Source of the DNA: Candidatus Lustribacter sp.
GTDB lineage: Bacteria > Vulcanimicrobiota > Vulcanimicrobiia > Vulcanimicrobiales > Vulcanimicrobiaceae
NCBI GenBank assembly: GCA_965277805.1
Contig: OZ255842.1
Coordinates: 3,968,001 to 4,032,000 of the forward strand
Length of the DNA stretch: 64,000 nt
Direction of reading: 5' to 3'
The translations under genes were made by a program, and so were the position numbers. Shown one piece after another: positions 7,475 through 63,590 of the stretch; positions within the stretch are counted from its first letter, which is position 1; the number at the start of each line of letters is the position of its first letter. The notes under the pieces are model-generated. The model was not told the origin of the DNA. It ran no database searches and saw only the letters and a list, made by a program, of their open reading frames with translations.

Positions 7475-7900
7475 TTAACGGCGGAAAAATGCGCCCAGGA
7501 ACGCGATGCCGTTGGAGGGCGGCGCCACGACCGGACCGGGAACGTCGACCACGGCGTACCGGCTGGGATCGTGCATGTTCATGCGACCCGCCAAATCGGC
7601 CAGACGCTCGCGCGACTGGAGTTGCGCGATGCGATCGTCGAGACGCAGCGTCTCTTCGACGAGGGCACTTTTCGTCTGCGTCGCCTGCGCGAGCGAGTAG
7701 TTGAGCGCGGTGAGGTTGCCCATGAGGAGCACGTAAACCATCACCGGCACCAGCAGCACCCCGAACCCGATTGCGATGAGCGCGGGCATCGCGTAATTCT
7801 GCATTCGCGTGCGGCGTCCGCGACGGCGCGCGGCTTCGCGCGCGCGTACCTGGACGCGCGGCTGGGGTTGAGTCTGCGGAATTGCTTTGAGCGCAATCAC
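7475..7900 (-). CDS. ftsL: Cell division protein FtsL-like
   Basis: Single TM followed by a coiled coil (L..RIAQLQSRERLADLA..MNM); sits between rsmH and ftsI. Confidence 0.75.
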   Translation of the reverse strand: MIALKAIPQTQPQPRVQVRAREAARRRGRRTRMQNYAMPALIAIGFGVLLVPVMVYVLLMGNLTALNYSLAQATQTKSALVEETLRLDDRIAQLQSRERLADLAGRMNMHDPSRYAVVDVPGPVVAPPSNGIAFLGAFFRR

Positions 7901-8763
7901 GCGGCGGCCTCGCTTTCAACGGTGGCGACGCGCATTTTCGCGCTGCGCGCCCGGGGATTGGTGCTGATTTCCTCATCGCCCGGTACGATGGGTTTGCGCG
8001 TGAGCGGTTGCACGCGCTCGTCCTCACGAAAGAACAGCTTCACGATACGATCTTCAAGCGAATGAAAGCTGATGACGGCGATGCGGCCGCCGGGGCGCAC
8101 GACGTTCGCCGCTCCGTCGAGGCTCTCGCGCAGCGCGCCGAGCTCGTCGTTGACCGCGATGCGCAAAGCCTGAAAGGTCCGCGTTGCGGGGTGAATGCGC
8201 TCGCGCTTCCCACGCACGTGCACGGACCCGGCGACGATCGCAGCCAGCTCGCCCGTGGTCCGCGGCAGTTTGCTCTTGAGCGCGCGGGCGATACGCCGTG
8301 AGTTGCGCTCGTCGCCATAGCGGAAGATGATGTCGGCCAACTCGACCTCGTCGTGCGAGACGATGTAGTCGGCCGCGCTTTCGCCCTGCGTTGGATCGAG
8401 CCGCATGTCGAGCGGCGCGTCGCTGCGGAACGAGAAGCCGCGCGCGCCGTCATCGAGCTGCATCGAGCTCACACCTAAGTCGTAGAGGACGCCGTCCACC
8501 CGCGCGATCGCCCGCGACGCCAGCTCCGCGGCGAGCGTCCGGAAATTTGCGTGTATTAAGGTAAGCCGCGGATCCTCCGGCGCGAGCGACGCCGCAAGCG
8601 GATCCGCATCGAAAGCGATTGTCCGTCCGAGCGGCCCCAATCGCTCCAGGATCAGCCGCGTGTGTCCGCCCGCGCCGAAGGTCGCGTCGACGTAAGTCCC
8701 ATCCGGGACGATGGCCAGAGCATCGAGTGCTTCGGTTGCAAGAACCGATGTGTGCGGCGGCAC
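7897..8763 (-). CDS. rsmH: 16S rRNA (cytosine1402-N4)-methyltransferase
   Basis: HTSVL, DATFGAGGH, DLGVSSMQLD, PLDMR, HPATRTFQALRIAVNDEL, ISFHSLEDRIVK, NPRARSAK. Confidence 0.97.
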   Translation of the reverse strand: MPPHTSVLATEALDALAIVPDGTYVDATFGAGGHTRLILERLGPLGRTIAFDADPLAASLAPEDPRLTLIHANFRTLAAELASRAIARVDGVLYDLGVSSMQLDDGARGFSFRSDAPLDMRLDPTQGESAADYIVSHDEVELADIIFRYGDERNSRRIARALKSKLPRTTGELAAIVAGSVHVRGKRERIHPATRTFQALRIAVNDELGALRESLDGAANVVRPGGRIAVISFHSLEDRIVKLFFREDERVQPLTRKPIVPGDEEISTNPRARSAKMRVATVESEAAA

Positions 8764-31887: not shown

Positions 31888-32769
31888 ATGGAGCTTCTTC
31901 AGCTAGAGTATTTTTGCACGCTCGGCCGCGTGCAGCACGTCACCCGCGCTGCCGAGCGAATCGGCATTGCGCAGCCGACGCTCAGCCGGGCGATCGCTCG
32001 CCTTGAAGGCGAGCTGGGCGTCCGTTTGTTCGAACGGCGCGGCCGCTCGGTCGCCCTCTCCGAACGCGGCGCCGTCTTCCTGTCCTACGTCGAGCGCGCG
32101 CTCGACGAACTCGGTAACGCGCAAACGCACATCGCGAAGATGAACCAGACGGAGGAGGCGACGGTCTCGTTGGGCTTCCTGCGCTCGCTCGGCCCGCGCT
32201 TCGTTCCCGACCTCGCTCGGCGCTTTCTGCTCGAACATCCGGCGGTGCGCTTTGATTACGGCGAAGCCGGACGCGACGGTTTGCTCCAACGCCTCTACAG
32301 CGGGCTCTCGATGTTGTGCATCACCGTGCACACCGACGATCCGCGCATCGATTGGCAGCCGATCGGCAAGCAAAACCTCGTTGTGATCGTGCCGCCGCAC
32401 CATCGGCTCGCCCAGCGTACGAGCATCCCGCTCTCCGAACTCGCCGGCGAACCGTTCGCGATGTTCAGCGAAGGCATTCCCGTGCGCCGGCAGATCCTCA
32501 GCCTGCTCGAGGCTGCGGGCGTCACGCCCATCATCGCCTCGGAAAGCGCGCAGTCCGGTTCGATCTTCGGCCTCGTTTCGTCCGGCTCGGCCGTGTCCAT
32601 CGTGCCCGCGACGGGCGCGTCGCACGATTGCGTCACGCTCACGATCGAGGATGCCGGCGCGGCACGCGATCTCGGTATCGCGCACCTGGCGGGCGGCTAC
32701 CTCTCCGTTGCGGAAACCGCCTTCCGCGAATTCGTGCTGCGCGACTCGGCGCTCTTAAGCGCCAAGTAG
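31888..32769 (+). CDS. LysR-family transcriptional regulator
   Basis: MELLQLEYF...HVTRAAERIGIAQPTLSRAIARLEGELGVRLFERRGR; start re-called at 31888. Confidence 0.95.
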   Translation: MELLQLEYFCTLGRVQHVTRAAERIGIAQPTLSRAIARLEGELGVRLFERRGRSVALSERGAVFLSYVERALDELGNAQTHIAKMNQTEEATVSLGFLRSLGPRFVPDLARRFLLEHPAVRFDYGEAGRDGLLQRLYSGLSMLCITVHTDDPRIDWQPIGKQNLVVIVPPHHRLAQRTSIPLSELAGEPFAMFSEGIPVRRQILSLLEAAGVTPIIASESAQSGSIFGLVSSGSAVSIVPATGASHDCVTLTIEDAGAARDLGIAHLAGGYLSVAETAFREFVLRDSALLSAK

Positions 32770-33768
32770 CGCGACCGTATTCGTGCGGTCAATCGCGGCC
32801 AGTTGCTGCGCATCGAACACACCGCAGCCGGCTAAGCCGTCGACGTTCTCCTTGACCGTCAGATACGGGTAGTCCGAGCCGAACAGGATTTGGGAGACCG
32901 GCACGATCTTCGTCAACGCCGCCATTGGTGCCGCGATGGCCGTTTGTGCCGTATCGTAATACATCTTGCGCGCTTCGCTGAAGAACCCGCCGGGGACCAC
33001 CTTGAGCCGGTCGGGCGCGCGCGACTCGCGCATGAAGCGCCACTGCAGGAACGGCATCGTACCGCCGGCATGCGACCAGATCACGCGCATGTTCGGATAC
33101 CTGAGCGTGGTGCCGCTGAAGATCATGCGCGCGATGGCCCGCGTCGTGTCCGTGCCGTACTCGATGTCGGCGTCGGTGATGCCGGCCATCAAATTCGTAC
33201 AGCACGCGGGTGAGGTGGGATGCACGAACAGAACGGCCTTGCGGCGGTTGAGTTCTTCGAAGATCGGCGCGAAGATCTCATCGCCGAGGTACCACTTGCC
33301 GTAGCTCGTGAACATACCGATGCCGTTGCACTTCAATGTGTCGAGGGCGTATCCGATCTCGGTCAGACAACCGTCGACATCCGGAAACGGCAGCGCGCCG
33401 AAGATCCCGAAGCGGCCCGGATGATCGGACCGCATCTTCGCCGCGTACTCATTGGCGTCGCGCGCCAGCCGGCGTGCCTGCTCGTTGTCGCCGAAGTTGA
33501 GTCCGGGCGTCGTAATCGAGAGGATCGCCTTTTGCGCGCCGCCTTCATCCATCGTTGCGAGTGTTGCCGCCGGCGACCACTTCTTCCAGATTTGCGCCGT
33601 GATCGGCGAGATGCCGTCGGTTACGCGCAGCCAGTACGGCGGTGCGAAGTGGTGGTGCACGTCGATGCGGCCCGGCGCCTGTGAACGCGCCGCGTCCGGC
33701 CCGAGTGCGAGCCCCGCGCCCGTGGCCGCCAATCCCGCAATGAACGTCCGGCGATCGATACCCATCAT
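32755..33768 (-). CDS. Amidohydrolase_2 family (ACMSD/6-MSA decarboxylase-like), Tat signal
   Basis: IDRRTFI signal; IDVHHH, FVHP, SHAGG, YDTA, LFGSDYP. Confidence 0.9.
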   Translation of the reverse strand: MMGIDRRTFIAGLAATGAGLALGPDAARSQAPGRIDVHHHFAPPYWLRVTDGISPITAQIWKKWSPAATLATMDEGGAQKAILSITTPGLNFGDNEQARRLARDANEYAAKMRSDHPGRFGIFGALPFPDVDGCLTEIGYALDTLKCNGIGMFTSYGKWYLGDEIFAPIFEELNRRKAVLFVHPTSPACCTNLMAGITDADIEYGTDTTRAIARMIFSGTTLRYPNMRVIWSHAGGTMPFLQWRFMRESRAPDRLKVVPGGFFSEARKMYYDTAQTAIAAPMAALTKIVPVSQILFGSDYPYLTVKENVDGLAGCGVFDAQQLAAIDRTNTVALLGA

Positions 33769-33773
33769 GCTCC

Positions 33774-33842
33774 TACTATAGTCGCATCGCCGCTTCGGAG
33801 CGATGCCGCCGAACGGTTCGCTTTATGACGCAGAGGCTATGG
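33774..33842 (-). promoter_or_regulatory. Putative LysR-regulated promoter, copy 2 (overlaps the 3' end of the upstream gene)
   Basis: TACTATAGTC...GGAGCGATG...ATGACGCAGAGGCTATGG, with spacing within 1 nt of copy 1. Confidence 0.65.
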
Positions 33843-34959
33843 TTAACGCTTTGTCCGCGTCGCTGAAGTTCTTGCCGGCGTCGAAGCGGATGATCTCGTC
33901 GTTCGCGCTCGCGTCGCGCAGGATGCCGTGCGGATCGCGGCCCTCTTGTACGGCCGCGATTGAATCGAAGGCGACCTTACGCCACATGATGATCCCGCGA
34001 TCCGACGACGCGAGAATTTCGCGCGTGCGGTCGTGGATGAGGCCTTGGCTCTCCTGCGCCGCGCGGTCTTGTTCGTCGGACGCCAAACCCCACCAGCCGT
34101 CCTCGACCGTATCGTACACGCCGCGCACGTTCTTCGTGAAGCCGCGGCACTCGCGTTTGTACGGCCCTTCCGGCTTGAACTTGCTCTCGATGAAGAACGT
34201 CATCGTCGCGTAGTCATCGACCGGCACCCGGATGTGTAAGAACTCGCTCGGGATGCTTCCGACGCGCGCGTTGTAGCGGCGGGTCGACGACGGGAAGATA
34301 TCGTGGACGATGTTTGTGCGGCCGTCCGGATATTCGGACTGCGTGCGAAAGCCGTACCACGTCTTCACGAACTCGACTTCGGGCCGCTTCAACGCGATCG
34401 ATGGATACACCGAGGCGTGCAGTGCCATGCTGTGATAAGCGTCGACGCCGTTTTCCGCGCGCTGCACCCAATTGCAGAGGTCGTCGGCGGCCCAGATCGT
34501 GCGGTCGCATTCATCGATGGCGAGCAGATCGAAGCGCGGGATCAAAGGCGCCGGATCGGGACCGAGGTACGCGAAGATGAGCCCGGCCACGATCTGCACT
34601 TTCGCCGAACGTTGGCGCACGCGCTGGGGCAGCGTGCTCGACGGCGGTTCGGCCGGCATCTCGAGACACTGGCCCTCGGCATCGTAGAGCCAGCCGTGGT
34701 AGCAGCAGCGGATGCCGCGCTCTTCGACGCGCCCGTGTTCGAGCGACGCGCGGCGATGCGAGCAGAACGTGTCGAGCATCCCGATCTTGCCCTCGCCGTC
34801 ACGGAAGAGCACGAAGTCTTCCCCGAGATGGCGCACCTTGACCGGCTTCTTCTCGATCTGCTCCTCAAAGCCGACCGGCCACCAATAGCGCCGCAGCATC
34901 TCGCCGCCGGGCGTTCCGGGGCCGACGCGGGTGAGCTTTTCGTTGTCTTCTGGCGTCAT
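33823..34959 (-). CDS. Rieske oxygenase alpha subunit (phthalate dioxygenase-like)
   Basis: LTRVGPGTPGGEMLRRYWWPV, CSH...CCYH, ENGVDAYHSMALH, QDRAAQESQG. Confidence 0.93.
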   Translation of the reverse strand: MTPEDNEKLTRVGPGTPGGEMLRRYWWPVGFEEQIEKKPVKVRHLGEDFVLFRDGEGKIGMLDTFCSHRRASLEHGRVEERGIRCCYHGWLYDAEGQCLEMPAEPPSSTLPQRVRQRSAKVQIVAGLIFAYLGPDPAPLIPRFDLLAIDECDRTIWAADDLCNWVQRAENGVDAYHSMALHASVYPSIALKRPEVEFVKTWYGFRTQSEYPDGRTNIVHDIFPSSTRRYNARVGSIPSEFLHIRVPVDDYATMTFFIESKFKPEGPYKRECRGFTKNVRGVYDTVEDGWWGLASDEQDRAAQESQGLIHDRTREILASSDRGIIMWRKVAFDSIAAVQEGRDPHGILRDASANDEIIRFDAGKNFSDADKALTIASAS

Positions 34960-44940: not shown

Positions 44941-46320
44941 GTGGCGCGTTCGTTCTTTAAGCCTGACCTCAACCGCCGTACCTTTCTCGCGGGTGCGGCG
45001 GCGTTGGCGCTGCCGATCACCGCGGCCGACGCGGCTGCTGCGCCTGACTACCGGCTTTCCATTGCGCCGCTCGAGTTGGAGCTGGCGCCGGGAAACGTAG
45101 TGAAGACCGTTGCTTATAACGGGAGCGTTCCGGGGCCGTTGATTCGCGTGCGCGAAGGGCAGCGCGTTACGATCGCGATCGACAATCATCAGACCGGAGT
45201 CGACGATATCGTGCACTGGCACGGGCTTACCGTTCCGTCGGCGGCCGACGGGTCGATGGAAGAGGGCAGCGCGATGATTGCGGCCGGCGGAAGCCAGACC
45301 GTATCGTTCGTCGCGCAGCCCGGCGGCACGCGCTGGTACCACACGCACAACATCGCCAAGACCGATCTCACGCGCAGTCTCTACACCGGTCAGTTCGGCC
45401 TGTTCATCATCGATCCGAAGAACGATCCGGCGCGATATGATCGCGAAGAGCTGATCGTCCTTCACAGCTGGCAACCGAGCTGGGTGATCTTGCAAGATTT
45501 GCGCAAGGGTCCGCCGGCCGACAACGGACTCGAAGTCGCGTACGCGTCGGCATCGGTCAACGGTCACGCGCTCGGTGCGGGTGCGCCGATCACCGTGCGG
45601 CAAGGGCAGCGCGTGCTCTTCCGCATCCTCAACGCCAACGCGACGATGGAAACCGCGCTCGCGCTTCCGGGCCACCGTTTCACCGTGATTGCGCTCGACG
45701 GCAATCCCGTCCCCGTACCGCAAACCGTCGACGTTCTCTTCATCGCGCCGGGCGAACGCATCGACGCGATCGTCGAGATGAATCAGCCGGGCGTGTGGGT
45801 CTTCGGCTCGACGAACAACGGTATGCGCATGATGGGCATGGGCACGGTCGTCGCGTACGCGGGCGCCGGCGGCGACCCGGTCTGGCAAGCGCCACCGGCG
45901 TCGACGTGGGATTACACGGCGTTCGGCAAGCCGGCGGTCGCGCGCGAGCCCGACGGCACGTTCAACCTGACGTTCGACAAAATTCCCGGCGGCCGCGGCG
46001 GCTACAATCGCTGGACGATCAACGGCAAGTCATGGCCCGACACGGATCCGCTGCGCGTGCAGCGCGGCAAACGTTACCGCATCACGCTTACGAATGCCAG
46101 CGGCGACTTGCACCCGATCCATCTGCATCGACATCGCTTTGAAGTGACGGCATGGAACGGCACGCCGTCCTCCGGCGTCATGAAAGACGTCGTCGCGCTA
46201 ATGCCGCGCAAAACCGCCACAATCGAATTCATCGCCGATAATCCCGGCCCGTCGCTATTCCACTGCCACATGCAAGACCACCAAGACTTCGGCTTCATGG
46301 GCCTCGTCCAATATATTTAG
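44941..46320 (+). CDS. Tat-exported multicopper oxidase
   Basis: LNRRTFL signal; HWHG, WYHTH, HPIHLH, HCHMQDHQDFGFM copper motifs all intact. Confidence 0.95.
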   Translation: MARSFFKPDLNRRTFLAGAAALALPITAADAAAAPDYRLSIAPLELELAPGNVVKTVAYNGSVPGPLIRVREGQRVTIAIDNHQTGVDDIVHWHGLTVPSAADGSMEEGSAMIAAGGSQTVSFVAQPGGTRWYHTHNIAKTDLTRSLYTGQFGLFIIDPKNDPARYDREELIVLHSWQPSWVILQDLRKGPPADNGLEVAYASASVNGHALGAGAPITVRQGQRVLFRILNANATMETALALPGHRFTVIALDGNPVPVPQTVDVLFIAPGERIDAIVEMNQPGVWVFGSTNNGMRMMGMGTVVAYAGAGGDPVWQAPPASTWDYTAFGKPAVAREPDGTFNLTFDKIPGGRGGYNRWTINGKSWPDTDPLRVQRGKRYRITLTNASGDLHPIHLHRHRFEVTAWNGTPSSGVMKDVVALMPRKTATIEFIADNPGPSLFHCHMQDHQDFGFMGLVQYI

Positions 46321-47367: not shown

Positions 47368-49551
47368 ATGCGGACTCGTAGAGCGTTTCATTCACTGATT
47401 ATCGCTGCAGCCGTGGCGTTGCTCGTCACCGCTCCATCGACGCTCACCGCGATGGCACCGGCCGTCAAGGTCGGCACCGCAGACATCGGCGGCGTCGTCA
47501 CCAGCGCGCACGGTCCCGAGGCCGGCGTGTGGGTGATCGCGCGGACCGACGATCTGCCGACGCGCTACACGAAGATCGTCGTGACCGACGATCAGGGCCG
47601 TTACCTCATACCGGACTTACCGGCCGGCGCTACCTACACGGTGTGGTCGCGCGGTTACGGCCTCGTCGACGGACCGCAAGTGCACACCGTACCGGGCAAG
47701 CTCATCAACCTGCGCGCGACGCTGGCGCCGAACGCAAAGGCCGCCGCGCAGTACTATCCGGCCGAGTACTGGTTCTCGCTGCTCAAGATTCCGGATGCGA
47801 GCGATTTCCCAGGAACCGGACCAAAAGGCAACGGCATCGGCACCGAGATCAAAAATCAGCAGATGTGGATCGACCAGGTCAAGACCGACGGCTGCGAGAC
47901 CTGTCATCAACTCGGCAACAAGTACACGCGCACGCTGCCGACGGCGTTCGGCACGTTCCCGAACCACGCCGCCGTGTGGCAACGCCGTGTCGAATCCGGC
48001 CAAGCCGGTCCGCTGATGACCTCGACCGCGGCCCGCATCGGACCGCGCCTGTTCGAAAATTTTGCCGACTGGACCGATCGCATCGCTGCCGGCGAGATTC
48101 CCAGCACGCAGCCGGCGCGACCGGCGGGCATCGAGCGCAATATCGTCATCACCGAATGGGACTGGTCGTCGCCGACCACCTACATGCACGACGAGATCTC
48201 GACGGATAAACGGAATCCGCGCCTCAACGCGTACGGCAAGATCTACGGATCGTCGGAAGAGAGCAGCGATTTCATGCCGGTGCTCGACCCGATCCGCAAT
48301 TCGACGAGTTGGGTCAAAGTGCCGGTGCTCGATCCGGCCACGCCGTCGTTCGACTTCCTGGGCGCCGAAAAACCGCTCATGCCGTCGGCGTTCTGGGGCA
48401 ATCAGCGCATCTGGCTCAGCCAGACAATCGTGCACAATCCGATGCTCGACGAAAACGGTCGTGTCTGGATGACCGCGCGCATTCGGCCTGAAGACGATCC
48501 CGCGTACTGCAAAGCCGGCTCGTCGATGGAGTCCGCGCAAGTCTTCCCGCTCACGACGTCGGGAAGGCAGTCGGCCGTGTACGATCCGAAAACCAAACAG
48601 TTCAAGCTCGCGAACTTGTGCTTCGGCACCCACCATCTGTACTTGACCGACGACGGCAAGGACACGATGTGGTATACGGGCAGCCGCGACGTCGCAGGCT
48701 GGCTCGACACCAAAGCGTTTCTCCGCACGGGCGATGCGTCAACGTCGCAAGGCTGGACGCCGTTCATCGTCGACACGACCGGTACGGGGAAACGCACTGC
48801 CGCGTGGACCGAACCCGGCGCACCGCTCGATCCGGCCAAAGATGCGCGCATCCACGGCAACTTCTACGGCGCAGGCATCAGCGCGGTCGACGGATCGGTG
48901 TGGGGTTCGGTCGTGAGTTATCCGGGCGTGGTCCTACGGGTTATGCCGGGCGCCGATCCGCCGCACACCGCATTGACCGAAGCCTACGAACTGCCCGCAA
49001 CCGATCCGCGCGCGCCGGTGCACGGCTTCTCCCCGCGCGGCATGGACATCGACTCGAACGGCGTCGTGTGGGCGCCGCTCGCGAGCGGACATCTCGCCAG
49101 CTTCGACCGGCGCAAATGCAAGGGACCGCTCAACGGCGCGGGCGCGGAGAAGGGACAGCAGTGCCCGGAAGGCTGGACGCTGTATCCGCTGCCGGGACCG
49201 CAGTTCAAGGGCCTCAAGGAATCGGGGAGCGCGGAAGCGCCGTACTTCACCTGGGTCGACCGGTTCAACACCGTCGGCCTCGGCAAAGACGTGCCGTACG
49301 CTACCGCTAATCTCGGCGAAGGTGCCTACGCGCTGGTGAACGGCAAGTTCGTCACCTTCCGCGTGCCGTATCCGCTCGGCTTCTTTGCGAAGAACGTCGA
49401 CGGCCGCATCGACGATCCGAAGGCCGGCTGGAAAGGCCGCGGCATGTGGACCACGTTCGGCTCGCGCACCCCGTTCCACATGGAAACAGGCAAAGGCACG
49501 AAGCCGATCGTGCTGCACATGCAGATTAGGCCAAACCCGCTGGCCGACTAG
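47368..49551 (+). CDS. Secreted protein: carboxypeptidase-regulatory-like domain, c-type heme, putative beta-propeller
   Basis: Sec signal; GPEAGVWVIA..VVTDDQGRYLIPDLP; CETCH heme motif; MHD, VHNP, THH His motifs; SPRGMDIDSNGVVW blade. Confidence 0.8.
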   Translation: MRTRRAFHSLIIAAAVALLVTAPSTLTAMAPAVKVGTADIGGVVTSAHGPEAGVWVIARTDDLPTRYTKIVVTDDQGRYLIPDLPAGATYTVWSRGYGLVDGPQVHTVPGKLINLRATLAPNAKAAAQYYPAEYWFSLLKIPDASDFPGTGPKGNGIGTEIKNQQMWIDQVKTDGCETCHQLGNKYTRTLPTAFGTFPNHAAVWQRRVESGQAGPLMTSTAARIGPRLFENFADWTDRIAAGEIPSTQPARPAGIERNIVITEWDWSSPTTYMHDEISTDKRNPRLNAYGKIYGSSEESSDFMPVLDPIRNSTSWVKVPVLDPATPSFDFLGAEKPLMPSAFWGNQRIWLSQTIVHNPMLDENGRVWMTARIRPEDDPAYCKAGSSMESAQVFPLTTSGRQSAVYDPKTKQFKLANLCFGTHHLYLTDDGKDTMWYTGSRDVAGWLDTKAFLRTGDASTSQGWTPFIVDTTGTGKRTAAWTEPGAPLDPAKDARIHGNFYGAGISAVDGSVWGSVVSYPGVVLRVMPGADPPHTALTEAYELPATDPRAPVHGFSPRGMDIDSNGVVWAPLASGHLASFDRRKCKGPLNGAGAEKGQQCPEGWTLYPLPGPQFKGLKESGSAEAPYFTWVDRFNTVGLGKDVPYATANLGEGAYALVNGKFVTFRVPYPLGFFAKNVDGRIDDPKAGWKGRGMWTTFGSRTPFHMETGKGTKPIVLHMQIRPNPLAD

Positions 49552-49552
49552 C

Positions 49553-50194
49553 CTACCACGTCGTCCGGGCGGCGGCTTCTTCGGGGGTATCCTTCGATGT
49601 GTTCGACGTATACGCCAGAGGATTCACGTGTCCGCAGTCGGGGCAGGTGCGTAGCGCGCGATCTCCATTGTAGGTGCGGACGCCCTCGATTTCCTTACGC
49701 CAGAACTCTCGAAGCCCAAGCTCGCCGGTGCGCACCGGCGTCTCGTAGAGCAGGGTGAAGCACTGTTGGCAGTACCACGCGTAGCTTTCGCCTTCACTAC
49801 CGACGGGCGTGCGCATCACGACGATGCTGTAGCCTGTCTCGCCCGGCGGCCCGGCGAATTTTATGGAGAGCTCTTCCATATCGGTGATGTGCCAATAGCC
49901 GAAATTGTACGGTACCCGATGCGGCGTCCCCGAGGCAATAATGTGGAAGTTGCCGGGCAAGAACCTGTGCTCGTGGATACCCTTCGGCCCGAGCTCGTGC
50001 AGGAGCGACACGTTGCCCTTTTTTGCGTCCGTCACTCCGAGCGATGAAACGTCGCGGCGGCGAATCCCATACACGTTCGAACCGACGGCCCGAAAACCGG
50101 AAAACTTCTTCAAAAGCGCGGCTTCGAGAAAGTCGGGCTCGTCGATGACTTTCTGCAACGGTTCTTTGATGGTCAACTCGATCGGTGTGTTCAT
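49553..50194 (-). CDS. 3-hydroxyanthranilate-dioxygenase-like cupin with rubredoxin-type CxxC/CxxC
   Basis: GTPHRV, YWHITDMEE, AWYCQQC...RTCPDCGHVNP. Confidence 0.7.
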   Translation of the reverse strand: MNTPIELTIKEPLQKVIDEPDFLEAALLKKFSGFRAVGSNVYGIRRRDVSSLGVTDAKKGNVSLLHELGPKGIHEHRFLPGNFHIIASGTPHRVPYNFGYWHITDMEELSIKFAGPPGETGYSIVVMRTPVGSEGESYAWYCQQCFTLLYETPVRTGELGLREFWRKEIEGVRTYNGDRALRTCPDCGHVNPLAYTSNTSKDTPEEAAARTTW

Positions 50195-50523
50195 GGCGTA
50201 CGCTCCGGGATGGTGATAAAGACCGAGCCGTCGGTCACGCGGGTTTCGAACGTCGGCACCGACAGCTCGGGATTCGTGACGCTCCTACCGTCCCGCAGGC
50301 CGAATCGGAATCGGTGCCAGGGGCAAATCAATTCGGCGCGCGCCTCGCTCACCGTGCCTTCGCACAACGGAGCGCCCTTATGCGGGCACGCATTCTGCAG
50401 CGCGAACACCTCGCCGGCAATACGCACGAGGACGACCTTTCGGCCGCGGACCGTCACGAGCTTGGGCATGCCTCGTTCGAGCTCGTCGAGCCGGCAGACC
50501 GCGTCTTCGCGATCGCTTACCAT
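50191..50523 (-). CDS. Rieske [2Fe-2S] ferredoxin
   Basis: Start re-called at ATG 50523. CPHKGAPL...CPWH. Confidence 0.9.
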   Translation of the reverse strand: MVSDREDAVCRLDELERGMPKLVTVRGRKVVLVRIAGEVFALQNACPHKGAPLCEGTVSEARAELICPWHRFRFGLRDGRSVTNPELSVPTFETRVTDGSVFITIPERTP

Positions 50524-51059
50524 GGTGCCGTATCTCGCATTTGGAAGTCGTAAGCGGGTGGGTGCTCTTGACCGCAGCCGTTGCACGTTCGCAGCGCCGG
50601 GCTCGCGTTGAATTCCGCCACTTTGGCAGCCGCATGATCCCAGAATGCCGCCAGGCCGAAGCGTCGCACGTCAAACGACGATTCCGCCAGCGGCTTCAGA
50701 CACGCCGAGCAGAACCAAGCGATGATATCGTTTCGATATGCGCGGTGTCCCGTGTTGATCAGAATGCTGTATGCCGTGCGCTCCGGCTCCGAGACCTTGA
50801 AGAGGTCGGTGTCACCGCCGGAAATACGCCAGAATCCGAACAGCGGGGCAATGCGGTGCGGCGTTCCGGCCGGAATGTTATTCAGCGCGTGACTCTCGCT
50901 CGGTAACTCGACAGTACCGCCGGATTGCAGCGTAAGCACGCGCAGCGGTACCAGGTGCGCCGGCCGGTGCATCGTCCAGAGCGCGTAGTCACCGACCTGC
51001 TGCCAGGCGGCGTTCTCGCCGCCCATTGCCACATTGAAGCTTAGCGTCGGTACGGTCAT
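50517..51059 (-). CDS. Second 3-HAO-like cupin-rubredoxin paralog with degenerate metal motif
   Basis: Start re-called at ATG 51059. PAGTPHRI, FGFWRIS, AWFCSAC...RTCNGCGQEHP. Confidence 0.68.
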   Translation of the reverse strand: MTVPTLSFNVAMGGENAAWQQVGDYALWTMHRPAHLVPLRVLTLQSGGTVELPSESHALNNIPAGTPHRIAPLFGFWRISGGDTDLFKVSEPERTAYSILINTGHRAYRNDIIAWFCSACLKPLAESSFDVRRFGLAAFWDHAAAKVAEFNASPALRTCNGCGQEHPPAYDFQMRDTAPW

Positions 51060-51064
51060 CTGCA

Positions 51065-52273
51065 CTACTTCCGCGCGGGCAGCGGCGCGCCGCCCGGCTT
51101 CGACGCCGGCGGGAACGTGTCGCGATCCGCATCCCACCGCACGATGGGCACCTGCATATCGGTGAGGCCGTGCTGATCGCCGATGCGGAAGTCGTAGGTT
51201 CCGTTGACGCCGTCGATGTTGTGGGCGGTCGAGAGATAGCTGCGGAGCTGCTCGGACGTGACGTTCGGCCCGAGCTTGCGCAGCGCATTGACAAGGATCC
51301 AAGCGGGATCCCAGGCCAAGCCGCTGTTCGGGCTGACAATCTCACCCGCGCTCTTGTACGTTGCGAGAAACTCGTCGACCGTGTTGCGCAACATGCCGGG
51401 GCGCAACTCGTCCCGTTCTTGATAGATGGAGCCGTTGAAGTACAGCGCCGGGGGCCGAAACGATTTATATTCGTCGAGCTGCGCGGGATTGAGGTTGGCC
51501 GCGGAAGTTACGACCGGCAGCTGCACACCGGCGTCACTGAGGTTTCGCAAAACCGTTCCGAACGCGGTGCCACCGACAAAGGCGAAGATGACGTTCGGCC
51601 CGGCATCCTTGATGCGCGCAACCTGCGCCGCTACGCTCAAATCGCCCGGATTGAAGTGTTGCCAGCTGACGACTTTTACGTCGCGATTTTCCGGCTGCGC
51701 GAGTGAGAACTCCACGGCTTGATCGGACGATTGTCCGCTCGCATCCGTCGCGGCGATGACGGCAATACGCCGATAGCCCTTGAGACGCGCGAATCGAATC
51801 ACAGCCCCAACGATCGAGTGCAGGGAAGCCGACGAGGCGAACGCGTACGTGCCGGCCTTCGGGAAAAATCCCGGCGAGATGCAAAAGTCGACCGGCCCGT
51901 CTTTGACCATCGCTGCGATTGCGGCGCACGAGGCAGTTTGATTTCCGCCGAAAAACGCGACCGGCTTGTGCGCGATAACGTCGGCGGCGAGTTGTACGGC
52001 GTTCTTCGGATTCGTTTGGTCGTCGTGAATCTCGATATGCAACGGACGCCCATAGATGCCGCCGTGCTGGTTGACGTCTTTCTCGAGCAGTCGCAGGGCC
52101 GATGCGTAAATGCTGCCGGCGAATCCGTTCGCGCCGGTGAGATCGAGGATAGCATCGATCGTGTAGGGCGCTTTCTCTTGCGCCCGCGACGGGGCGATGC
52201 CCGCGCCGGCCACGAGCGTGAAGGCAAGAAGCGCCGTGAGGCCCAGTCGAGCGAAGCGCGTGGGGATGTTCAC
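51065..52273 (-). CDS. ABC substrate-binding protein, branched-chain (LivJ) family
   Basis: Sec signal; LDLTG, VNQHGGIYGRPL..DDQTNP, AQVARIK. Confidence 0.9.
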   Translation of the reverse strand: MNIPTRFARLGLTALLAFTLVAGAGIAPSRAQEKAPYTIDAILDLTGANGFAGSIYASALRLLEKDVNQHGGIYGRPLHIEIHDDQTNPKNAVQLAADVIAHKPVAFFGGNQTASCAAIAAMVKDGPVDFCISPGFFPKAGTYAFASSASLHSIVGAVIRFARLKGYRRIAVIAATDASGQSSDQAVEFSLAQPENRDVKVVSWQHFNPGDLSVAAQVARIKDAGPNVIFAFVGGTAFGTVLRNLSDAGVQLPVVTSAANLNPAQLDEYKSFRPPALYFNGSIYQERDELRPGMLRNTVDEFLATYKSAGEIVSPNSGLAWDPAWILVNALRKLGPNVTSEQLRSYLSTAHNIDGVNGTYDFRIGDQHGLTDMQVPIVRWDADRDTFPPASKPGGAPLPARK

Positions 52274-52309
52274 GGCACAGTCATTTAGCTTCCTTCCCCA
52301 GGAAGCCTT

Positions 52310-52897
52310 CTATTCTTCCACCGCGAGCTCGGGCTGCGCCGAGCCTTCCTCCATCGCCTCGAAGGCTAGTAGTAACGACCGCAGGCTAGCGGCCAGGGCA
52401 CGGCGCGCCTGCGGATCGACGCTTCGGAACACCTCGAATTCAGGCTCGGCCGGCGCCCTCAACTCGTTATCGACCAAGCGGCGGCCCTTCGGGGTCAGCT
52501 CGATGACCACTCGCCGGGCGTCCTCCATGCTCGTCGACCGGCGTGCGACGTAGCCAAGCATTTCCAACTGATCGATACGCTTAGCAATGCCGCCCGACGT
52601 TATCGCGATCTCGGCCAGCAGATCGGTGGGCGTCAGCGGGCCGCTGCTGCGCCGCAGCGCAAAGAGCAGCGACACGTCGCGCCGGGTGATCCCGTTGCGA
52701 ATCGCTACACGTGTGAGGGCGCGGTCGATATAGCGCGAAATCCGTTGGATGCGTGCCGAAACGGCAAACGTCGGATCGTCGACGTCCGGCGTTGCCGCCT
52801 TCCATTGCGCGGCGCGCAGGTCGATCGAGTCGTGCTGATCCGATGCGACCGGAGCCGGACGGATGTGACGGTTGCGCTTAACGATTGGACTCTCCAT
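52310..52897 (-). CDS. MarR-family regulator (PecS/TamR/UrtR-like N-terminal helix)
   Basis: DSIDLRAAQW..TPDVD, LTPTDL..ITSGGIAKRIDQLE..G, DARRVVIELT..G; start uncertain. Confidence 0.9.
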   Translation of the reverse strand: MESPIVKRNRHIRPAPVASDQHDSIDLRAAQWKAATPDVDDPTFAVSARIQRISRYIDRALTRVAIRNGITRRDVSLLFALRRSSGPLTPTDLLAEIAITSGGIAKRIDQLEMLGYVARRSTSMEDARRVVIELTPKGRRLVDNELRAPAEPEFEVFRSVDPQARRALAASLRSLLLAFEAMEEGSAQPELAVEE

Positions 52898-52970
52898 TCG
52901 GATACAACGTGGCCTGGCCGTCAATTCGAGTCAGCGATTGGTGATCATGCCGATCCCATCGGCCAGGTAG

Positions 52971-52992
52971 TTTCCTTCCGACGGAAGAAATA
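52971..52992. promoter_or_regulatory. Palindromic operator, putative MarR site
   Basis: TTTC-CTTCCG-A-CGGAAG-AAA between the divergent marR and M24 genes. Confidence 0.6.
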
Positions 52993-52998
52993 TTATTC

Positions 52999-54306
52999 AT
53001 GACGGTTCTCGCACAGCATGTCTATCGGCGTTTTTCCATTGCCGAGCGCGATCGCCGCTGGAGCGGCCTACGACAACGTATGGAACGCGATGGCCTCGCG
53101 GCGATCGTCGCACCCCAAAACCCCGGCAACTCGACCGACTGGCAAGCCGACGCGCGGTATATATCGCAGTGCGGCGGCGGAGCCGACGCTTCGATCGCCG
53201 CGGTACTCCCTCTCGACGGCGAGGTCACCGTCGTCGCGACGTCGGCGCTGGAGCGCTGGGGGCCGGCGGTGCAAAACTGGGTCACCGACGTGCGTGAGGC
53301 CCAACGCCGTTACGGCAAAGTCATTGCCGAACGGCTTTTGGAACTCGGCCTCTCCAACCAAAAGATCGGTATAACCGGCGCGAGCACGCGTTCGCCCGAG
53401 GGTACGATCATGCACGGCACCTATGCGGCCATTACGTCGATGCTTCCGCACGCGACGTTCGTCGACGCGTCGGAACTGCTCCAAGAAATGCGCGAACAAA
53501 AGAGTGCTGAGGAGCTGGCCGTCCTTCAAAGTTCCGTCGACCTCGTAGAGCGAGCGTACGACGCGATGGCACGCGCTGCGCAGCCCGGCGTTCCGGACTA
53601 TTACGTGTGGGCCGAATCGATGCACGCGATGTTCTCACGCGGATCGGAACTGTCGGTGCATTACAACTGGCTCGCAGACACTCACCCGGGCCGCACGCTT
53701 ACCCGTCCGACAGGCCGGCCGCTCGTTGCCGGGGACGTCATCGTAGCCGAGATGGAAGCGTCGGTTTGCGGCTACCGCTCCCAGCAAATCCGGCCTGTCG
53801 CCGTGCACGACGCCGACCCGTTTTTCCGCGAGCTCGCCAAACTGCATGGCGAGCTCTACCCGCAGCTCCTCGATGTGATTCGCCCCGGCATTACCGTGTC
53901 CGAGCTGATCGAAAAGACAATCGCAGTCGGGAAGAAAGCAACGAGGCGCGCCGGTGCGCTGGCGGACCTCCAAACCTCGCTGATCGTCCACGGCCGCGGC
54001 CTGGGCGATGACCGGCCCTTGCTGCTCACCGATCTCGACGCCAAGCCGATGTATGAGGGAACCGAACGCGCCATGAGTTTCCGTTTTCCGGATAACGGCG
54101 TCTACATCGTCAAGCCGACGATCGCCTCACGTGATAAGAAATATCAATTCATCTGGGGCGACACGGTCAGGCTCACTCCATCGGGTGCCCGCCGCATGGG
54201 CCGCTCGGACCACGGGCTGATCGTCTCGGAGCCGGCGCCGGTTGCATGGCCGCAAGACGTCAACATTTACCGGGACTTGGCCGTTAACGAAAGATCAGAG
54301 ACTTGA
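52999..54306 (+). CDS. M24 (creatinase/Xaa-Pro peptidase) fold hydrolase
   Basis: FSIAERDRRW, REQKSAEEL, HGRGLG; the canonical metal-binding Asp/Glu residues appear substituted. Confidence 0.82.
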   Translation: MTVLAQHVYRRFSIAERDRRWSGLRQRMERDGLAAIVAPQNPGNSTDWQADARYISQCGGGADASIAAVLPLDGEVTVVATSALERWGPAVQNWVTDVREAQRRYGKVIAERLLELGLSNQKIGITGASTRSPEGTIMHGTYAAITSMLPHATFVDASELLQEMREQKSAEELAVLQSSVDLVERAYDAMARAAQPGVPDYYVWAESMHAMFSRGSELSVHYNWLADTHPGRTLTRPTGRPLVAGDVIVAEMEASVCGYRSQQIRPVAVHDADPFFRELAKLHGELYPQLLDVIRPGITVSELIEKTIAVGKKATRRAGALADLQTSLIVHGRGLGDDRPLLLTDLDAKPMYEGTERAMSFRFPDNGVYIVKPTIASRDKKYQFIWGDTVRLTPSGARRMGRSDHGLIVSEPAPVAWPQDVNIYRDLAVNERSET

Positions 54307-55864
54307 TGACGAGCGGGATGACGCCTGGAGGGGTGACCATCTCGCCGACATCGACGAAATCGAAATCGCGCAGATCGACGCTATCGATCGAGAGCACCTC
54401 GCACGTGAGGTTCAACTCATCGCGTAGCAGATGACCCATCGTCTTGCCGACGTCGCCGTCGATCAGCACGACGAGCGGGGTCGTGCGCGCGTTCGGCTGC
54501 GAGACGGTTTGCGCGATGCCCTTGGCCACCGCGAGCAGCTCGCGATATTCCGGCGCGCGCGTCCAGCTGAACGCGACCGCCACGATCGCATCGTCATCGC
54601 GTTCGAGCCGCCCGATGCTGCGCCGCAACGCCTCCTCGAGCCCGTCGCTCGTGAACGTTTCCGGAATCTCCAACCGCACGACCGGAACGTTGCGCAACGG
54701 TAGCGCGGCGTGGTCCGACACGTAGATCGTCTTGCCGCTGACTTGCACCGTGAATTGCGATGCGCCGAGCACGGTCGCGCGAATGCCCGAACCCGGATCG
54801 ACGACCGGTACTTTCAAGCGTTCGCGAAAGCGTTCGCGCAGCTGTTCGGCCAATTGCGGCGCGAGATCGCCGAACTCTTTGACTTGCCGCTTGAACACGT
54901 ATTCGGCCACGCCGCCGGAAACGGTGATCGCTTCGGGCTCGACGGTACGCCGTAACTCGGGCGTGAGGATCAGCGAGCGCGCAAACGCATCCAGCGGTGC
55001 GCCCGTGATGTAATCGATCAAGACATCGGCCAACCGGCTGGCCATCCGCGCGCGCGTTTCCGCGTTGGCAAATGATTCCGGCGTGGCCGGAACGCCGAGT
55101 TCTTTGGCCAGCAACACCGCCGTGTCGTCGATGCGGGTATACTTGCCGTCCGCGTCGAGTGCGATCAAACGCCCGCCGACGGCAAACGCGCACAGATCGA
55201 GGATCTCGCCGCCATGGATCAGCGCAAGCTTCGTCGTGCCGCCGCCGATATCGACATGCAGCACGGTCGTGTCAGGATCTTTTGAATACGCGACGGCGCC
55301 CGAACCGTGCGCGCACAGCACCGCTTCGAGCTGGTGACCGGCCGTCGCGCACACGAACTTGCCCGCGTGGGCTGCGAAGAGTTCGTCGATCGCCTCGGCG
55401 TTGCTCTTCTTGATCGCTTCACCGGTGAGGATTACCGCGCCGCTGTCGATCGCCTCCGGCGTGGTTCCCGCATCGTGATAACACGTTTCGATAAAGCGGC
55501 CGAGCTTGTCGGCGTCGATTGCGCCCGCGGCGGTGAACGGCGTCAGCATGATCGGCGAGCGCCACACGATATCGCGCCGCACGACGACGTAGCGGCTCGA
55601 GAGATCCTGCGCCTCACGTTCGAGGATGATTTTCGCAAACAGCAAGTGCGAGGTCGAACTGCCGATGTCGATGCCGACGGTTTTCAGTTCGAGATGTTCT
55701 TGCGACTCGATGTAGGCCTCGATCGCCTTCGCCGCTTCCGCGTCGAAGTGAGCGTGGTCGAAGATGTCCTCGTGCAATTGCAGCCACTCCCTTGCCCAGG
55801 CAGCCTGCATCCCCGCAAGACCAGGATCCACCGGCGGACGGCCGTGCGGTTGAAAGAACGCCAT
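54284..55864 (-). CDS. eutA: EutA-like reactivase (ASKHA ATPase)
   Basis: TVGIDIGSSTSHL, SGAVILTGEA, GKFVCATAGHQLEA, DIGGGTTK, SGGVAEY, IRATVLGAS, PLVIKSLIF. Confidence 0.85.
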   Translation of the reverse strand: MAFFQPHGRPPVDPGLAGMQAAWAREWLQLHEDIFDHAHFDAEAAKAIEAYIESQEHLELKTVGIDIGSSTSHLLFAKIILEREAQDLSSRYVVVRRDIVWRSPIMLTPFTAAGAIDADKLGRFIETCYHDAGTTPEAIDSGAVILTGEAIKKSNAEAIDELFAAHAGKFVCATAGHQLEAVLCAHGSGAVAYSKDPDTTVLHVDIGGGTTKLALIHGGEILDLCAFAVGGRLIALDADGKYTRIDDTAVLLAKELGVPATPESFANAETRARMASRLADVLIDYITGAPLDAFARSLILTPELRRTVEPEAITVSGGVAEYVFKRQVKEFGDLAPQLAEQLRERFRERLKVPVVDPGSGIRATVLGASQFTVQVSGKTIYVSDHAALPLRNVPVVRLEIPETFTSDGLEEALRRSIGRLERDDDAIVAVAFSWTRAPEYRELLAVAKGIAQTVSQPNARTTPLVVLIDGDVGKTMGHLLRDELNLTCEVLSIDSVDLRDFDFVDVGEMVTPPGVIPLVIKSLIFR

Positions 55865-62294: not shown

Positions 62295-63590
62295 TTAGGC
62301 TAGGACCGGTTCGGCTGCTTTTTCTCGTGCCTGATTGTATTCTTCGAATACCTTGATCAGGTCGGGGATGAATGGCGAGAACTGCACTTGCGTACGGCGG
62401 ATTTGGCTCTCAAAACCATCGCTGAAGTGCGCTTTGTTCTTTTCGACCGGGATATCGAGCGCGTTGTTCTCGGCGGGATCGCGGATCACGCCGATCGGGT
62501 CTTCACCGCGCGCGACCTTGGCCATTTCGCGTTGCAGCATCTTGCGGAATTGGATGACGCCGGTGTCGGTCGTGCCGAGCTTCTCGAGATGGCGCAGTGC
62601 GATCGGGCCTTGCGTGACCCACGCCATCACGTCTTGCGCGTCGATGATGTCGAGCCGGAACTCGCCCTGCTTGTCGCGATACGGGAAATCATAGAGCGGA
62701 ACGCGATCGAGCAGCTTTTGCGGCACTTGCATGCCTTCGGGCGGTTCGTAGGCGATGTACCAGTAGTGCATCGACGTCGTATCGTCGAGCGGCACGCGCA
62801 TTTGATATGCGTGGAACTTCCAGACTTTGCCGCCGCCGCTGCCGACCGCGAGAATATTCGGGAAGAGCACCGGGTGCCCGACGCGCCAATCGTCTGAATC
62901 TTCCGATGCGCCCTCGAGCAAACGGCGCTTGTAGATGCCGTACTTGAATTCTTGAAACGCGATCTTGAGGTGCTTGCGCGAGATCTGATAGTGCGTGCCG
63001 GCGAAGCCGCTCTTCTCTTCAACGAACTCTTGCAATTTGCCGTGCAGCCACTCGGTGTGCACGGGGTCGAGCGAGTTCTCCATGATCTGCAGCCAATTGC
63101 ACGGAATGATGGCCTGACCGATTTGGCGGATGGCGCCGTCGACGACGAAACCGGGCCAGCGCGGCAAGAGCGGCGCGGGTAACGGACCCATGTATGCAAA
63201 GATCAATCCGCCGAGCGCTTGCACGGGATAACCGGTGGTCGCGGTCTTCTCTTTGAACGTGCTGCCGTCGGGTTCGTTGGGATGATTGATGCACGCCCCT
63301 GAGGCGTCGAACTGCCAGCCGTGATAGGGACAGCGAATGCCGACTTCTTGCGGGATGCCGTAGGCCAGCGATGCGCGCCGGTGCGGGCAGAACTCCGCGA
63401 CGAGGCCCAGCACGCCGCTGCGATCGCGGAACAGCACGAGATCCTCGCCGAGCAGGCGGACGCGCTTGGTCCAGGCGTCTTTCAGCTCCTCAACGGCGGC
63501 AATCGGATGCCAGTACCGGCGCTGGAGTTCGCCCATCGGCGTTCCCGGGCCGACCAGCGTGAGGTGCGTGTTTTCAAGCTCGCTAAGCAT
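62295..63590 (-). CDS. Rieske oxygenase alpha subunit (LigX/phthalate dioxygenase-like)
   Basis: LTLVGPGTPMGELQRRYWHPI, CPH...CPYH, ENSLDPVHTEWLH, QDVMAWVTQG. Confidence 0.93.
   Translation of the reverse strand: MLSELENTHLTLVGPGTPMGELQRRYWHPIAAVEELKDAWTKRVRLLGEDLVLFRDRSGVLGLVAEFCPHRRASLAYGIPQEVGIRCPYHGWQFDASGACINHPNEPDGSTFKEKTATTGYPVQALGGLIFAYMGPLPAPLLPRWPGFVVDGAIRQIGQAIIPCNWLQIMENSLDPVHTEWLHGKLQEFVEEKSGFAGTHYQISRKHLKIAFQEFKYGIYKRRLLEGASEDSDDWRVGHPVLFPNILAVGSGGGKVWKFHAYQMRVPLDDTTSMHYWYIAYEPPEGMQVPQKLLDRVPLYDFPYRDKQGEFRLDIIDAQDVMAWVTQGPIALRHLEKLGTTDTGVIQFRKMLQREMAKVARGEDPIGVIRDPAENNALDIPVEKNKAHFSDGFESQIRRTQVQFSPFIPDLIKVFEEYNQAREKAAEPVLA

Follow-up and report, generated by a model that had tools for sequence, protein, structure and literature searches.

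The closest described relatives of the proteins reported here are 3-hydroxyanthranilate 3,4-dioxygenase (3-HAO) and NbaC (PF06052; PDB 1YFU, 5V26 and 1ZVF), homodimeric cupin enzymes with which they have in common the cupin fold, a motif-2 histidine, an arginine aligned with the carboxylate-binding one of 3-HAO and a C-terminal CxxC...CxxC site. Other features recall further oxygenases. In AmnAB (2-aminophenol 1,6-dioxygenase) and in the alpha/beta pair of protocatechuate 3,4-dioxygenase, paralogous subunits are combined of which one only carries the iron ligands, while XylT-type ferredoxins are small [2Fe-2S] proteins encoded in some, but not all, operons for non-haem iron dioxygenases. We have analysed a stretch of 64,000 nucleotides (the window) from Candidatus Lustribacter sp. 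(GCA_965277805.1, contig OZ255842.1, positions 3,968,001 to 4,032,000), in which two paralogous genes for 3-HAO-like cupins, A and B, enclose a gene for a Rieske ferredoxin. A survey of the literature on cupin/3-HAO systems with Rieske ferredoxins, on heterodimers with an inactive subunit and on creatinase-linked clusters found no such system described. With a probability of roughly 0.45, sequence comparison and modelling lead us to propose that A and B are the two halves of a heterodimer, a mononuclear non-haem iron oxygenase in which B would be the catalytic and A the structural subunit, the ferredoxin would act as electron donor and the substrate would be aromatic.

The three genes close a tight row on the minus strand (49553-52924) that reads marR, a Peripla_BP_6 gene, A, Rieske and B. 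Gene A (50517-51059, minus strand) encodes 180 residues, the ferredoxin gene (50191-50523, minus strand) 110 and gene B (49553-50194, minus strand) 213. A runs into the beginning of the ferredoxin gene by seven bases (ATGGTAA), the ferredoxin gene runs into the beginning of B by four (ATGA), and five bases separate the stop of the binding-protein gene from the start of A; the overlaps point to translational coupling of A, ferredoxin and B. A preliminary description of this DNA had reported the three overlapping genes at these coordinates, and all the motifs it quoted are found: GTPHR, FG(Y/F)W, AW(Y/F)CxxC, GLxxFW and LRTCxxCG in both outer proteins, with WHITDMEE confined to B and WRISGGD found in A.

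A and B align with 33% identity across 129 residues (E 9e-21), a homology far beyond chance that makes them distant paralogues, as had been claimed. Neither matches any Pfam model, and for 3-HAO (PF06052) there is no match at E <= 0.1. Their NCBIfam matches are all to 3-HAO models and all weak: with NF009763, whose cut-off is 220 bits, A scores 28.2 and B 30.8 bits, in matches limited to the C-terminal third and with E values of about 1e-6 to 1e-7, while the genome's own NbaC, serving as a positive control, reaches 281.4 bits; by PF06052, NF009763 and TIGR03037 alike, both proteins fall outside the 3-HAO family. A profile of 21 B-family sequences, however, aligned by hhalign with four 3-HAO sequences over 162 columns at 99% probability (E 3e-18), and a search of the PDB with the B-family profile matched 3-HAO chains alone. 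AlphaFold (AF2) models are confident, with a predicted local distance difference test score (pLDDT) of 87.2 for B and 86.7 for A, and the best match of each in VIA-align is the 3-HAO chain 5v26_A, at Z 9.1 and a root-mean-square deviation of 3.2 Å over 141 residues for B and at Z 9.3 and 4.6 Å over 139 residues for A, with the top unrelated chains below Z 5. VIA-align is clearer in placing the fold than Foldseek, for which every match listed at E <= 0.001 is a 3-HAO, yet with low template modelling (TM) scores of 0.38-0.46 and deviations of 7-10 Å. In both proteins the cupin fold with its C-terminal extension superimposes on solved 3-HAO, and the cysteines of a rubredoxin-like CxxC...CxxC site (Cys117/120/159/162 in A, Cys142/145/184/187 in B) align with those of 3-HAO. 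A and B are securely homologous to 3-HAO as remote relatives outside that family. The profile and Foldseek comparisons proposed in the preliminary description, once run, leave its label of 3-HAO-like cupins with a four-cysteine (Cys4) site standing by profile, fold and aligned cysteines, but not membership of the 3-HAO family, for which 28-31 bits compare with a cut-off of 220.

Their weak C-terminal likeness to NbaC models and the Cys4 site held in common could be taken to mean that A and B are ordinary 3-HAO paralogues of the NbaC type, acting in the kynurenine or 2-nitrobenzoate pathway with the ferredoxin as a bystander. We consider this very improbable. Beyond the scores just given, the motif-1 His/Glu ligands are missing, the ferredoxin linkage is repeated across many unrelated contigs, and the same genome carries a genuine NbaC-type 3-HAO (281 bits) together with a second 3-HAO-family gene, so that the cassettes are not required for the 3-HAO reaction. 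In practice, the membership tests exclude an ordinary 3-HAO role.

Conservation was assessed in 97 B sequences, drawn from this genome, two relatives, two alphaproteobacterial metagenome-assembled genomes (MAGs) and 75 metagenome loci, and in 66 A sequences. The latter were gathered from the loci, since a word-index search with A returned A itself as the sole match; an ESM Atlas search with B gave no usable match. Invariant in 97/97 B sequences are His92, His102, Glu108, Cys142, Cys145, Cys184, Cys187, Trp101, Asn176, Tyr195 and Arg210. Arg45 of B, kept in 96/97, aligns with the carboxylate-binding arginine that precedes motif 1 in 3-HAO (Arg47 of the substrate and catalytic residues Arg47, Arg99 and Glu110), and the Arg99 region falls on non-conserved B residues. 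The four cysteines of A are kept in 66, 66, 65 and 66 of the 66 sequences, whereas the equivalent of His92 is a histidine in 26/66 only, that of His102 is arginine (34 sequences) or hydrophobic, with histidine in only 5/66, and that of Glu108 is threonine, alanine or leucine; Asp83 of A is invariant (66/66). This pattern agrees with the split into a catalytic and a non-catalytic paralogue that had been put forward for the pair.

In the profile alignment, the motif-1 histidine of 3-HAO falls on a gap in B and the motif-1 glutamate on a non-conserved position, the 'PH' region of motif 2 corresponds to GTPH92R, and B continues beyond the motif-2 histidine with a 16-residue insertion, the stretch FGYWHINDxDELYL, to which His102 and Glu108 belong. 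Unlike 3-HAO, whose ligand set comprises HxxxxxE in motif 1 and the motif-2 histidine, B retains only the aligned motif-2 region, beside His92, and A has neither; B additionally possesses an N-terminal helical extension. The order in which PH precedes H...E, opposite to that of 3-HAO, is real in this alignment, but its earlier description as a permuted cupin site overstated the case: the aligned sequences are better explained if the motif-1 ligands were lost and a histidine and a glutamate were acquired on an insertion, with no circular permutation. We infer that His92, His102 and Glu108 would bind one iron.

The predicted A-B complex has an interaction prediction score from aligned errors (ipSAE) whose median over three runs is 0.80, whereas the best of three controls stays at 0.00. 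Of 80 solved complexes 58 came up to that mark, as did 2 of 110 mismatched pairs. At least 76% of the contacts are common to the runs, and the partner pLDDT is at least 80. In the modelled interface, residues 106-116 of B, the family-specific hairpin, lie against residues 81-90 of A, with a further contribution from the N-terminal helices of B, and both His92 of B and the invariant Asp83 of A are among the interface residues. Together with the near-universal adjacency of the two genes, the complex model makes an A-B heterodimer the most likely state, in keeping with the heterocomplex that had been anticipated. A hetero-pair with a ligand-less paralogue and a linked Rieske ferredoxin would set this system apart from the 3-HAO homodimer. 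The two-paralogue logic is that of AmnAB and protocatechuate 3,4-dioxygenase, although these are built on LigB-type and intradiol folds and are not known to have a Cys4 site or a dedicated ferredoxin.

The middle gene encodes a Rieske protein, as previously described, scoring 69.9 bits with PF00355 against a cut-off of 20.3, and its CxH...CxxH ligands (Cys46/His48/Cys67/His70) are kept in 41/41 cassette ferredoxins. With a length of 105-113 residues in the first five of these (the window copy, a second copy in the genome and those of loci L027, L001 and L002), the protein has all the attributes of a small, stand-alone Rieske [2Fe-2S] ferredoxin. Its nearest relatives are NirD (67.1 bits, equivalog cut-off 74.65) and the HcaC (55.8 against 150) and AndAb (51.2 against 150) components of Rieske non-haem iron oxygenase systems, so that at 51-67 bits it stays below every one of these cut-offs. 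As in those systems, electrons would pass from a Rieske centre to a 2-His-1-carboxylate iron site; the cassette differs from them in lacking an alpha subunit with a fused Rieske domain, the candidate catalytic protein being a Cys4 cupin. It also differs from the XylT type, a plant-type ferredoxin partnered with a vicinal-oxygen-chelate dioxygenase: the window ferredoxin matches Rieske models only, and its partner is a cupin.

When 1.84 billion representative proteins were searched with a profile, 173 matched at E <= 0.001, of which 102 reached E <= 1e-10 and 28 reached E <= 1e-30, the 173 being a mixture of B-like and A-like proteins with true 3-HAO at the weak end only. A search for nearer relatives yielded 50 clusters, none with a Pfam domain and with 'hypothetical protein' as the sole product name. 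Source names for the family include Alphaproteobacteria (MAGs), Steroidobacteraceae, Chloroflexota and Candidatus Lustribacter. Within a sample of the window's phylum, 3 of 401 genomes carry the family, this one included. Here, five B and four A genes are distributed over four clusters, and a second genome from this genus encodes seven B genes or more. The other three A/B cassettes lie near 283 kb, 682 kb and 3293 kb of G000:C1 (L009, L011-L015), each with M24 and Peripla_BP_6 genes, and in the 682-kb cluster one A gene is flanked by two B genes. Cassette-type ferredoxins number two in the whole genome, the window copy and one about 6 kb from the 682-kb cluster.

Metagenomes contributed 82 B genes in 75 loci, a few of which are identical copies, and L045 is counted twice (overlapping frames). 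An A gene lies within 1.5 kb of 59/82 metagenomic B genes, or 59 of the 63 that could be evaluated, and of 21 of the 24 that are well flanked (at least 2.5 kb on both sides); among B genes from genomes, A lies equally near in 12 of 15. A cassette-type Rieske ferredoxin occurs within 2.5 kb of B in 35/82 cases (13/24 well-flanked) and an M24-fold gene within 3 kb in 27/82 (14/24 well-flanked), one or both being present in 20/24 of the well-flanked cases. Conservation of the three-gene cassette, which the preliminary description had named as a check, holds for the A-B pair but not for a universal trio. In a FastTree phylogeny of the 97 B sequences, the deep clades have the order B-A-Rieske. The window B belongs to a clade of six, with good support, in which the genes run A-Rieske-B and an M24 gene is present as well, and the ferredoxin-less, M24-linked cassettes form a derived group. 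The ferredoxin is a recurrent partner that is probably ancestral to the cassette. Variable B residues (46, 47, 93, 96, 127 and 182), compared with ferredoxin presence, showed nothing beyond phylogeny.

Two side themes emerged from the loci. In the B-A-Rieske clades the next gene almost always encodes an NMT1_3 protein (TAXI-like binding-protein fold) of about 320 residues, as at L001:7549-8520, L002:1775-2746, L050:8541-9491, L062:8555-9511, L064:8635-9606, L081:8184-9161 and L104:8594-9556; the window cassette has none. By eye, its N terminus is without a signal peptide, which suggests a cytoplasmic partner of binding-protein fold. Separately, sister families in this genome likewise pair two Cys4-cupins. 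At L108 (G000:C1:2154000-2164000; genes at 3708-4148 and 4690-5883 on the minus strand and at 5966-6661, 6661-7236 and 7253-8464 on the plus strand) two such genes adjoin with an ATGA overlap, beside M24, Peripla_BP_6 and 147-residue Rieske genes. One of these cupins has a stretch resembling the H..E of motif 1 and the other 'GTPHRIVP'; neither belongs to a Pfam or NCBIfam family, and hhalign relates the sister cupins to the B profile at 96.5% and 92.8%. A 489-residue protein at L109 (8002-9468, minus strand) appears to be a fusion of both types, which would give Rosetta-stone support for cupin pairing.

We propose the following mechanism, which starts from the observed homology, the patterns of conservation, the linkage of the genes and a complex model that found support; metal binding, O2 chemistry, the direction of electron flow and the class of substrate are what we infer from these. 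B, having lost the canonical cupin motif-1 His/Glu iron ligands, would hold Fe(II) through the motif-2 histidine His92 together with His102 and Glu108 of the 16-residue hairpin insertion. A would be a degenerate paralogue with the Cys4 (rubredoxin-like) site only, serving as a structural and possibly electron-relaying partner, and the co-translated Rieske ferredoxin would pass electrons to A/B. As substrate, an aromatic or heteroaromatic compound with a carboxylate group is probable. The adjacent binding protein may aid its import, the M24-fold hydrolase may process the compound before or after oxidation, and MarR may control the whole set.

How the electrons would be spent is a question on which the ferredoxin distribution bears in both directions. 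They could be used in every turnover, in monooxygenase-type chemistry, which we hold at somewhat less than even odds and towards which we lean, because the ferredoxin looks ancestral and translationally coupled. A/B could instead be an extradiol-type ring-cleaving dioxygenase that, like 3-HAO, takes no external electrons for turnover, the ferredoxin merely re-reducing iron that has become inactivated by oxidation, as XylT does. The nearest relatives of A and B are indeed ring-cleaving dioxygenases, and since only about half of the well-flanked cassettes (13/24) have the ferredoxin, it is distributed as an accessory repair factor might be. Ferredoxin-mediated reactivation of catechol dioxygenases has reportedly been observed, in work attributed to Polissi & Harayama 1993 and Hugo et al. 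1998, 2000. XylT-type ferredoxins are plant-type [2Fe-2S] proteins and not Rieske proteins, however, the gene here sits between the two subunit genes with which it is coupled, the position of Glu110 is occupied by methionine or glutamine, and most 3-HAO active-site residues are replaced; we judge repair to be on the unlikely side. A more specific version of the electron-donor proposal has the trio as a cupin-scaffold, Rieske-dependent oxygenase, in which the Rieske protein docks on A/B and the Fe(Cys)4 centres of A and B are a possible relay, and not a store of iron, leading to the relocated 2-His-1-Glu iron, for monooxygenation (hydroxylation or demethylation) of an aromatic acid. Such a class would differ from both 3-HAO and the classical Rieske oxygenases, and we think it doubtful, a shade more so than repair.

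Several observations weigh against an A/B oxygenase fed by the ferredoxin. The ferredoxin is missing from 11/24 well-flanked cassettes; two of the genome's four cassettes are without it and a third has the second copy about 6 kb off, so that the ferredoxin, if it is an obligate electron donor, would have to serve these cassettes in trans. Among the neighbouring genes here and at related loci, none for a reductase is found regularly. Where 3-HAO has Glu110, 75 of the 97 B sequences have Met and 22 have Gln, and extradiol chemistry may accordingly not be kept. His92, His102 and Glu108 would have to converge on one site, the Cys4 sites could hold structural zinc, and, as solved 3-HAO homodimers exist, the A-B complex score may partly reflect likeness to them, although the modelled interface draws on the hairpin peculiar to this family and on the helices at the N terminus of B. 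Finally, the genes nearby are of mixed kinds and do not add up to one pathway.

The neighbourhoods nevertheless point to aromatic-acid catabolism. Here and at related loci they include LigXa-type Rieske oxygenases, LigB, glyoxalase-fold proteins, Amidohydro_2, dienelactone hydrolase and UbiD, with transporters of the TctC, TRAP and MFS carboxylate types. The window itself holds two LigXa-type Rieske oxygenase alpha subunits (33823-34959 and 62295-63590, both minus strand), an Amidohydro_2 gene (32755-33768, minus strand) and a multicopper oxidase gene (44941-46320, plus strand), which fit a region for aromatic-compound oxidation. This setting bears on whether A/B is an oxygenase at all. Cupins catalyse many non-oxidative reactions, and the pair might be a lyase, isomerase or decarboxylase with a structural zinc-ribbon Cys4 site, or a redox or metal-handling complex (for instance a module for electron transfer or sensing that binds iron or zinc) with the Rieske protein; that most 3-HAO substrate and catalytic residues are not kept, that the M24-fold and periplasmic-binding-protein-fold (PBP-fold) partners differ among loci and that no reductase is regularly linked would all be compatible with this. 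Yet a 2-His-1-Glu set that never varies and is confined to one paralogue is the triad classically associated with O2 activation, it is difficult to see why a non-redox enzyme should have a Rieske ferredoxin of its own, and genes for aromatic oxygenases and for ring cleavage abound in the neighbourhoods, so that we rate a non-oxygenase role as rather improbable, below either use of the electrons discussed above.

Returning to the proposed oxygenase cassette, its accompanying genes are themselves recurrent. The secreted solute-binding protein (Peripla_BP_6; 51065-52273, minus strand) belongs to a cassette-specific subfamily: the five top-scoring of the genome's 104 Peripla_BP_6 paralogues all adjoin cassettes. 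The M24-fold (creatinase/prolidase-like) gene (52999-54306, plus strand) is divergent from marR, and M24-fold genes stand beside all four cassettes of this genome, which has 10 M24 paralogues above 400 bits. In the window's clade they accompany A, ferredoxin and B in varied arrangements, one of which, A-Rieske-B-MarR-M24 at L034, is on a single strand. The window M24 protein scores 36.7 bits with PF00557 and 30.3 bits with Creatinase_N. Compared with prolidase 5cdl, two Asp metal ligands are replaced by Glu and Gln in an alignment covering these two of the five ligand positions, and the protein may thus be creatinase-like and not a dinuclear metallopeptidase. For both the binding protein and the M24 protein the solved relatives are remote only and indicate no ligand. 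An excerpt on riboflavin catabolism (PMC12746152) describes LumW as a cobalt-dependent pyrone hydrolase acting after a ring-cleaving dioxygenase; the excerpt does not state an M24 fold, and the case is not used here.

The MarR-family regulator gene (52310-52924, minus strand) heads the minus-strand row. The palindrome pattern CTTCCNNNGGAAG (CTTCC-N3-GGAAG) occurs twice in the window and in none of 100 window shuffles, and has four copies in 5.53 Mb, two of which flank marR: CTTCCCCAGGAAG (52293-52305) between marR and the binding-protein gene, and CTTCCGACGGAAG (52975-52987) in the divergent marR/M24 promoter region. The two sites fit a shared, candidate MarR operator; a third copy, inside a coding region, is probably due to chance. 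A scan for sigma-70 promoters and terminators stayed at chance level. The association with MarR, a binding protein and an M24 enzyme noted earlier is upheld, in that the links recur and the rare palindrome lies on both sides of marR.

Other genes around the cassette were noted in passing. Directly downstream of B and convergent with it, 47368-49551 (plus strand) encodes a 727-residue secreted protein with a weak CarboxypepD_reg match (23.6 bits, below cut-off), a CETCH stretch (CxxCH, haem-c-like) seen by eye and no other family. An EutA-like (ethanolamine ammonia-lyase reactivase) gene (54284-55864, minus strand; Pfam 408 bits), whose end overlaps that of the M24 gene, is followed by dienelactone hydrolase and MFS transporter genes; no eutB or eutC was found among the neighbouring genes scanned (56-64 kb). 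In the window's nearest relatives a protein of 243-245 residues is encoded between B and M24 (L027:2363-3094, plus strand; L035:3185-3916, minus strand), and a similar gene (G000:C1:674029-674766, plus strand) abuts the genome's second cassette-type ferredoxin gene. By eye, this protein is presumably of the class II aldolase/adducin type.

On sequence grounds, A/B is a new family-level variant within the cupin/3-HAO superfamily, distinguished by apparently relocated ligands, a putatively degenerate partner subunit and a dedicated Rieske ferredoxin. If the proposed reading is true, a cupin 2-His-1-carboxylate triad would have been rebuilt from an inserted hairpin after the loss of motif 1, an instance of active-site migration in a well-studied fold. 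In the 3-HAO lineage the rubredoxin-like site has been debated as a reservoir of iron; it would become testable as an electron relay, given a ferredoxin that is genetically attached to it. A catabolic enzyme family without a Pfam or NCBIfam model, rare yet spread across several bacterial lineages and present in 5-7 copies per genome in one genus, would gain a name, and the binding proteins specific to its cassettes are a practical means of finding the substrates.

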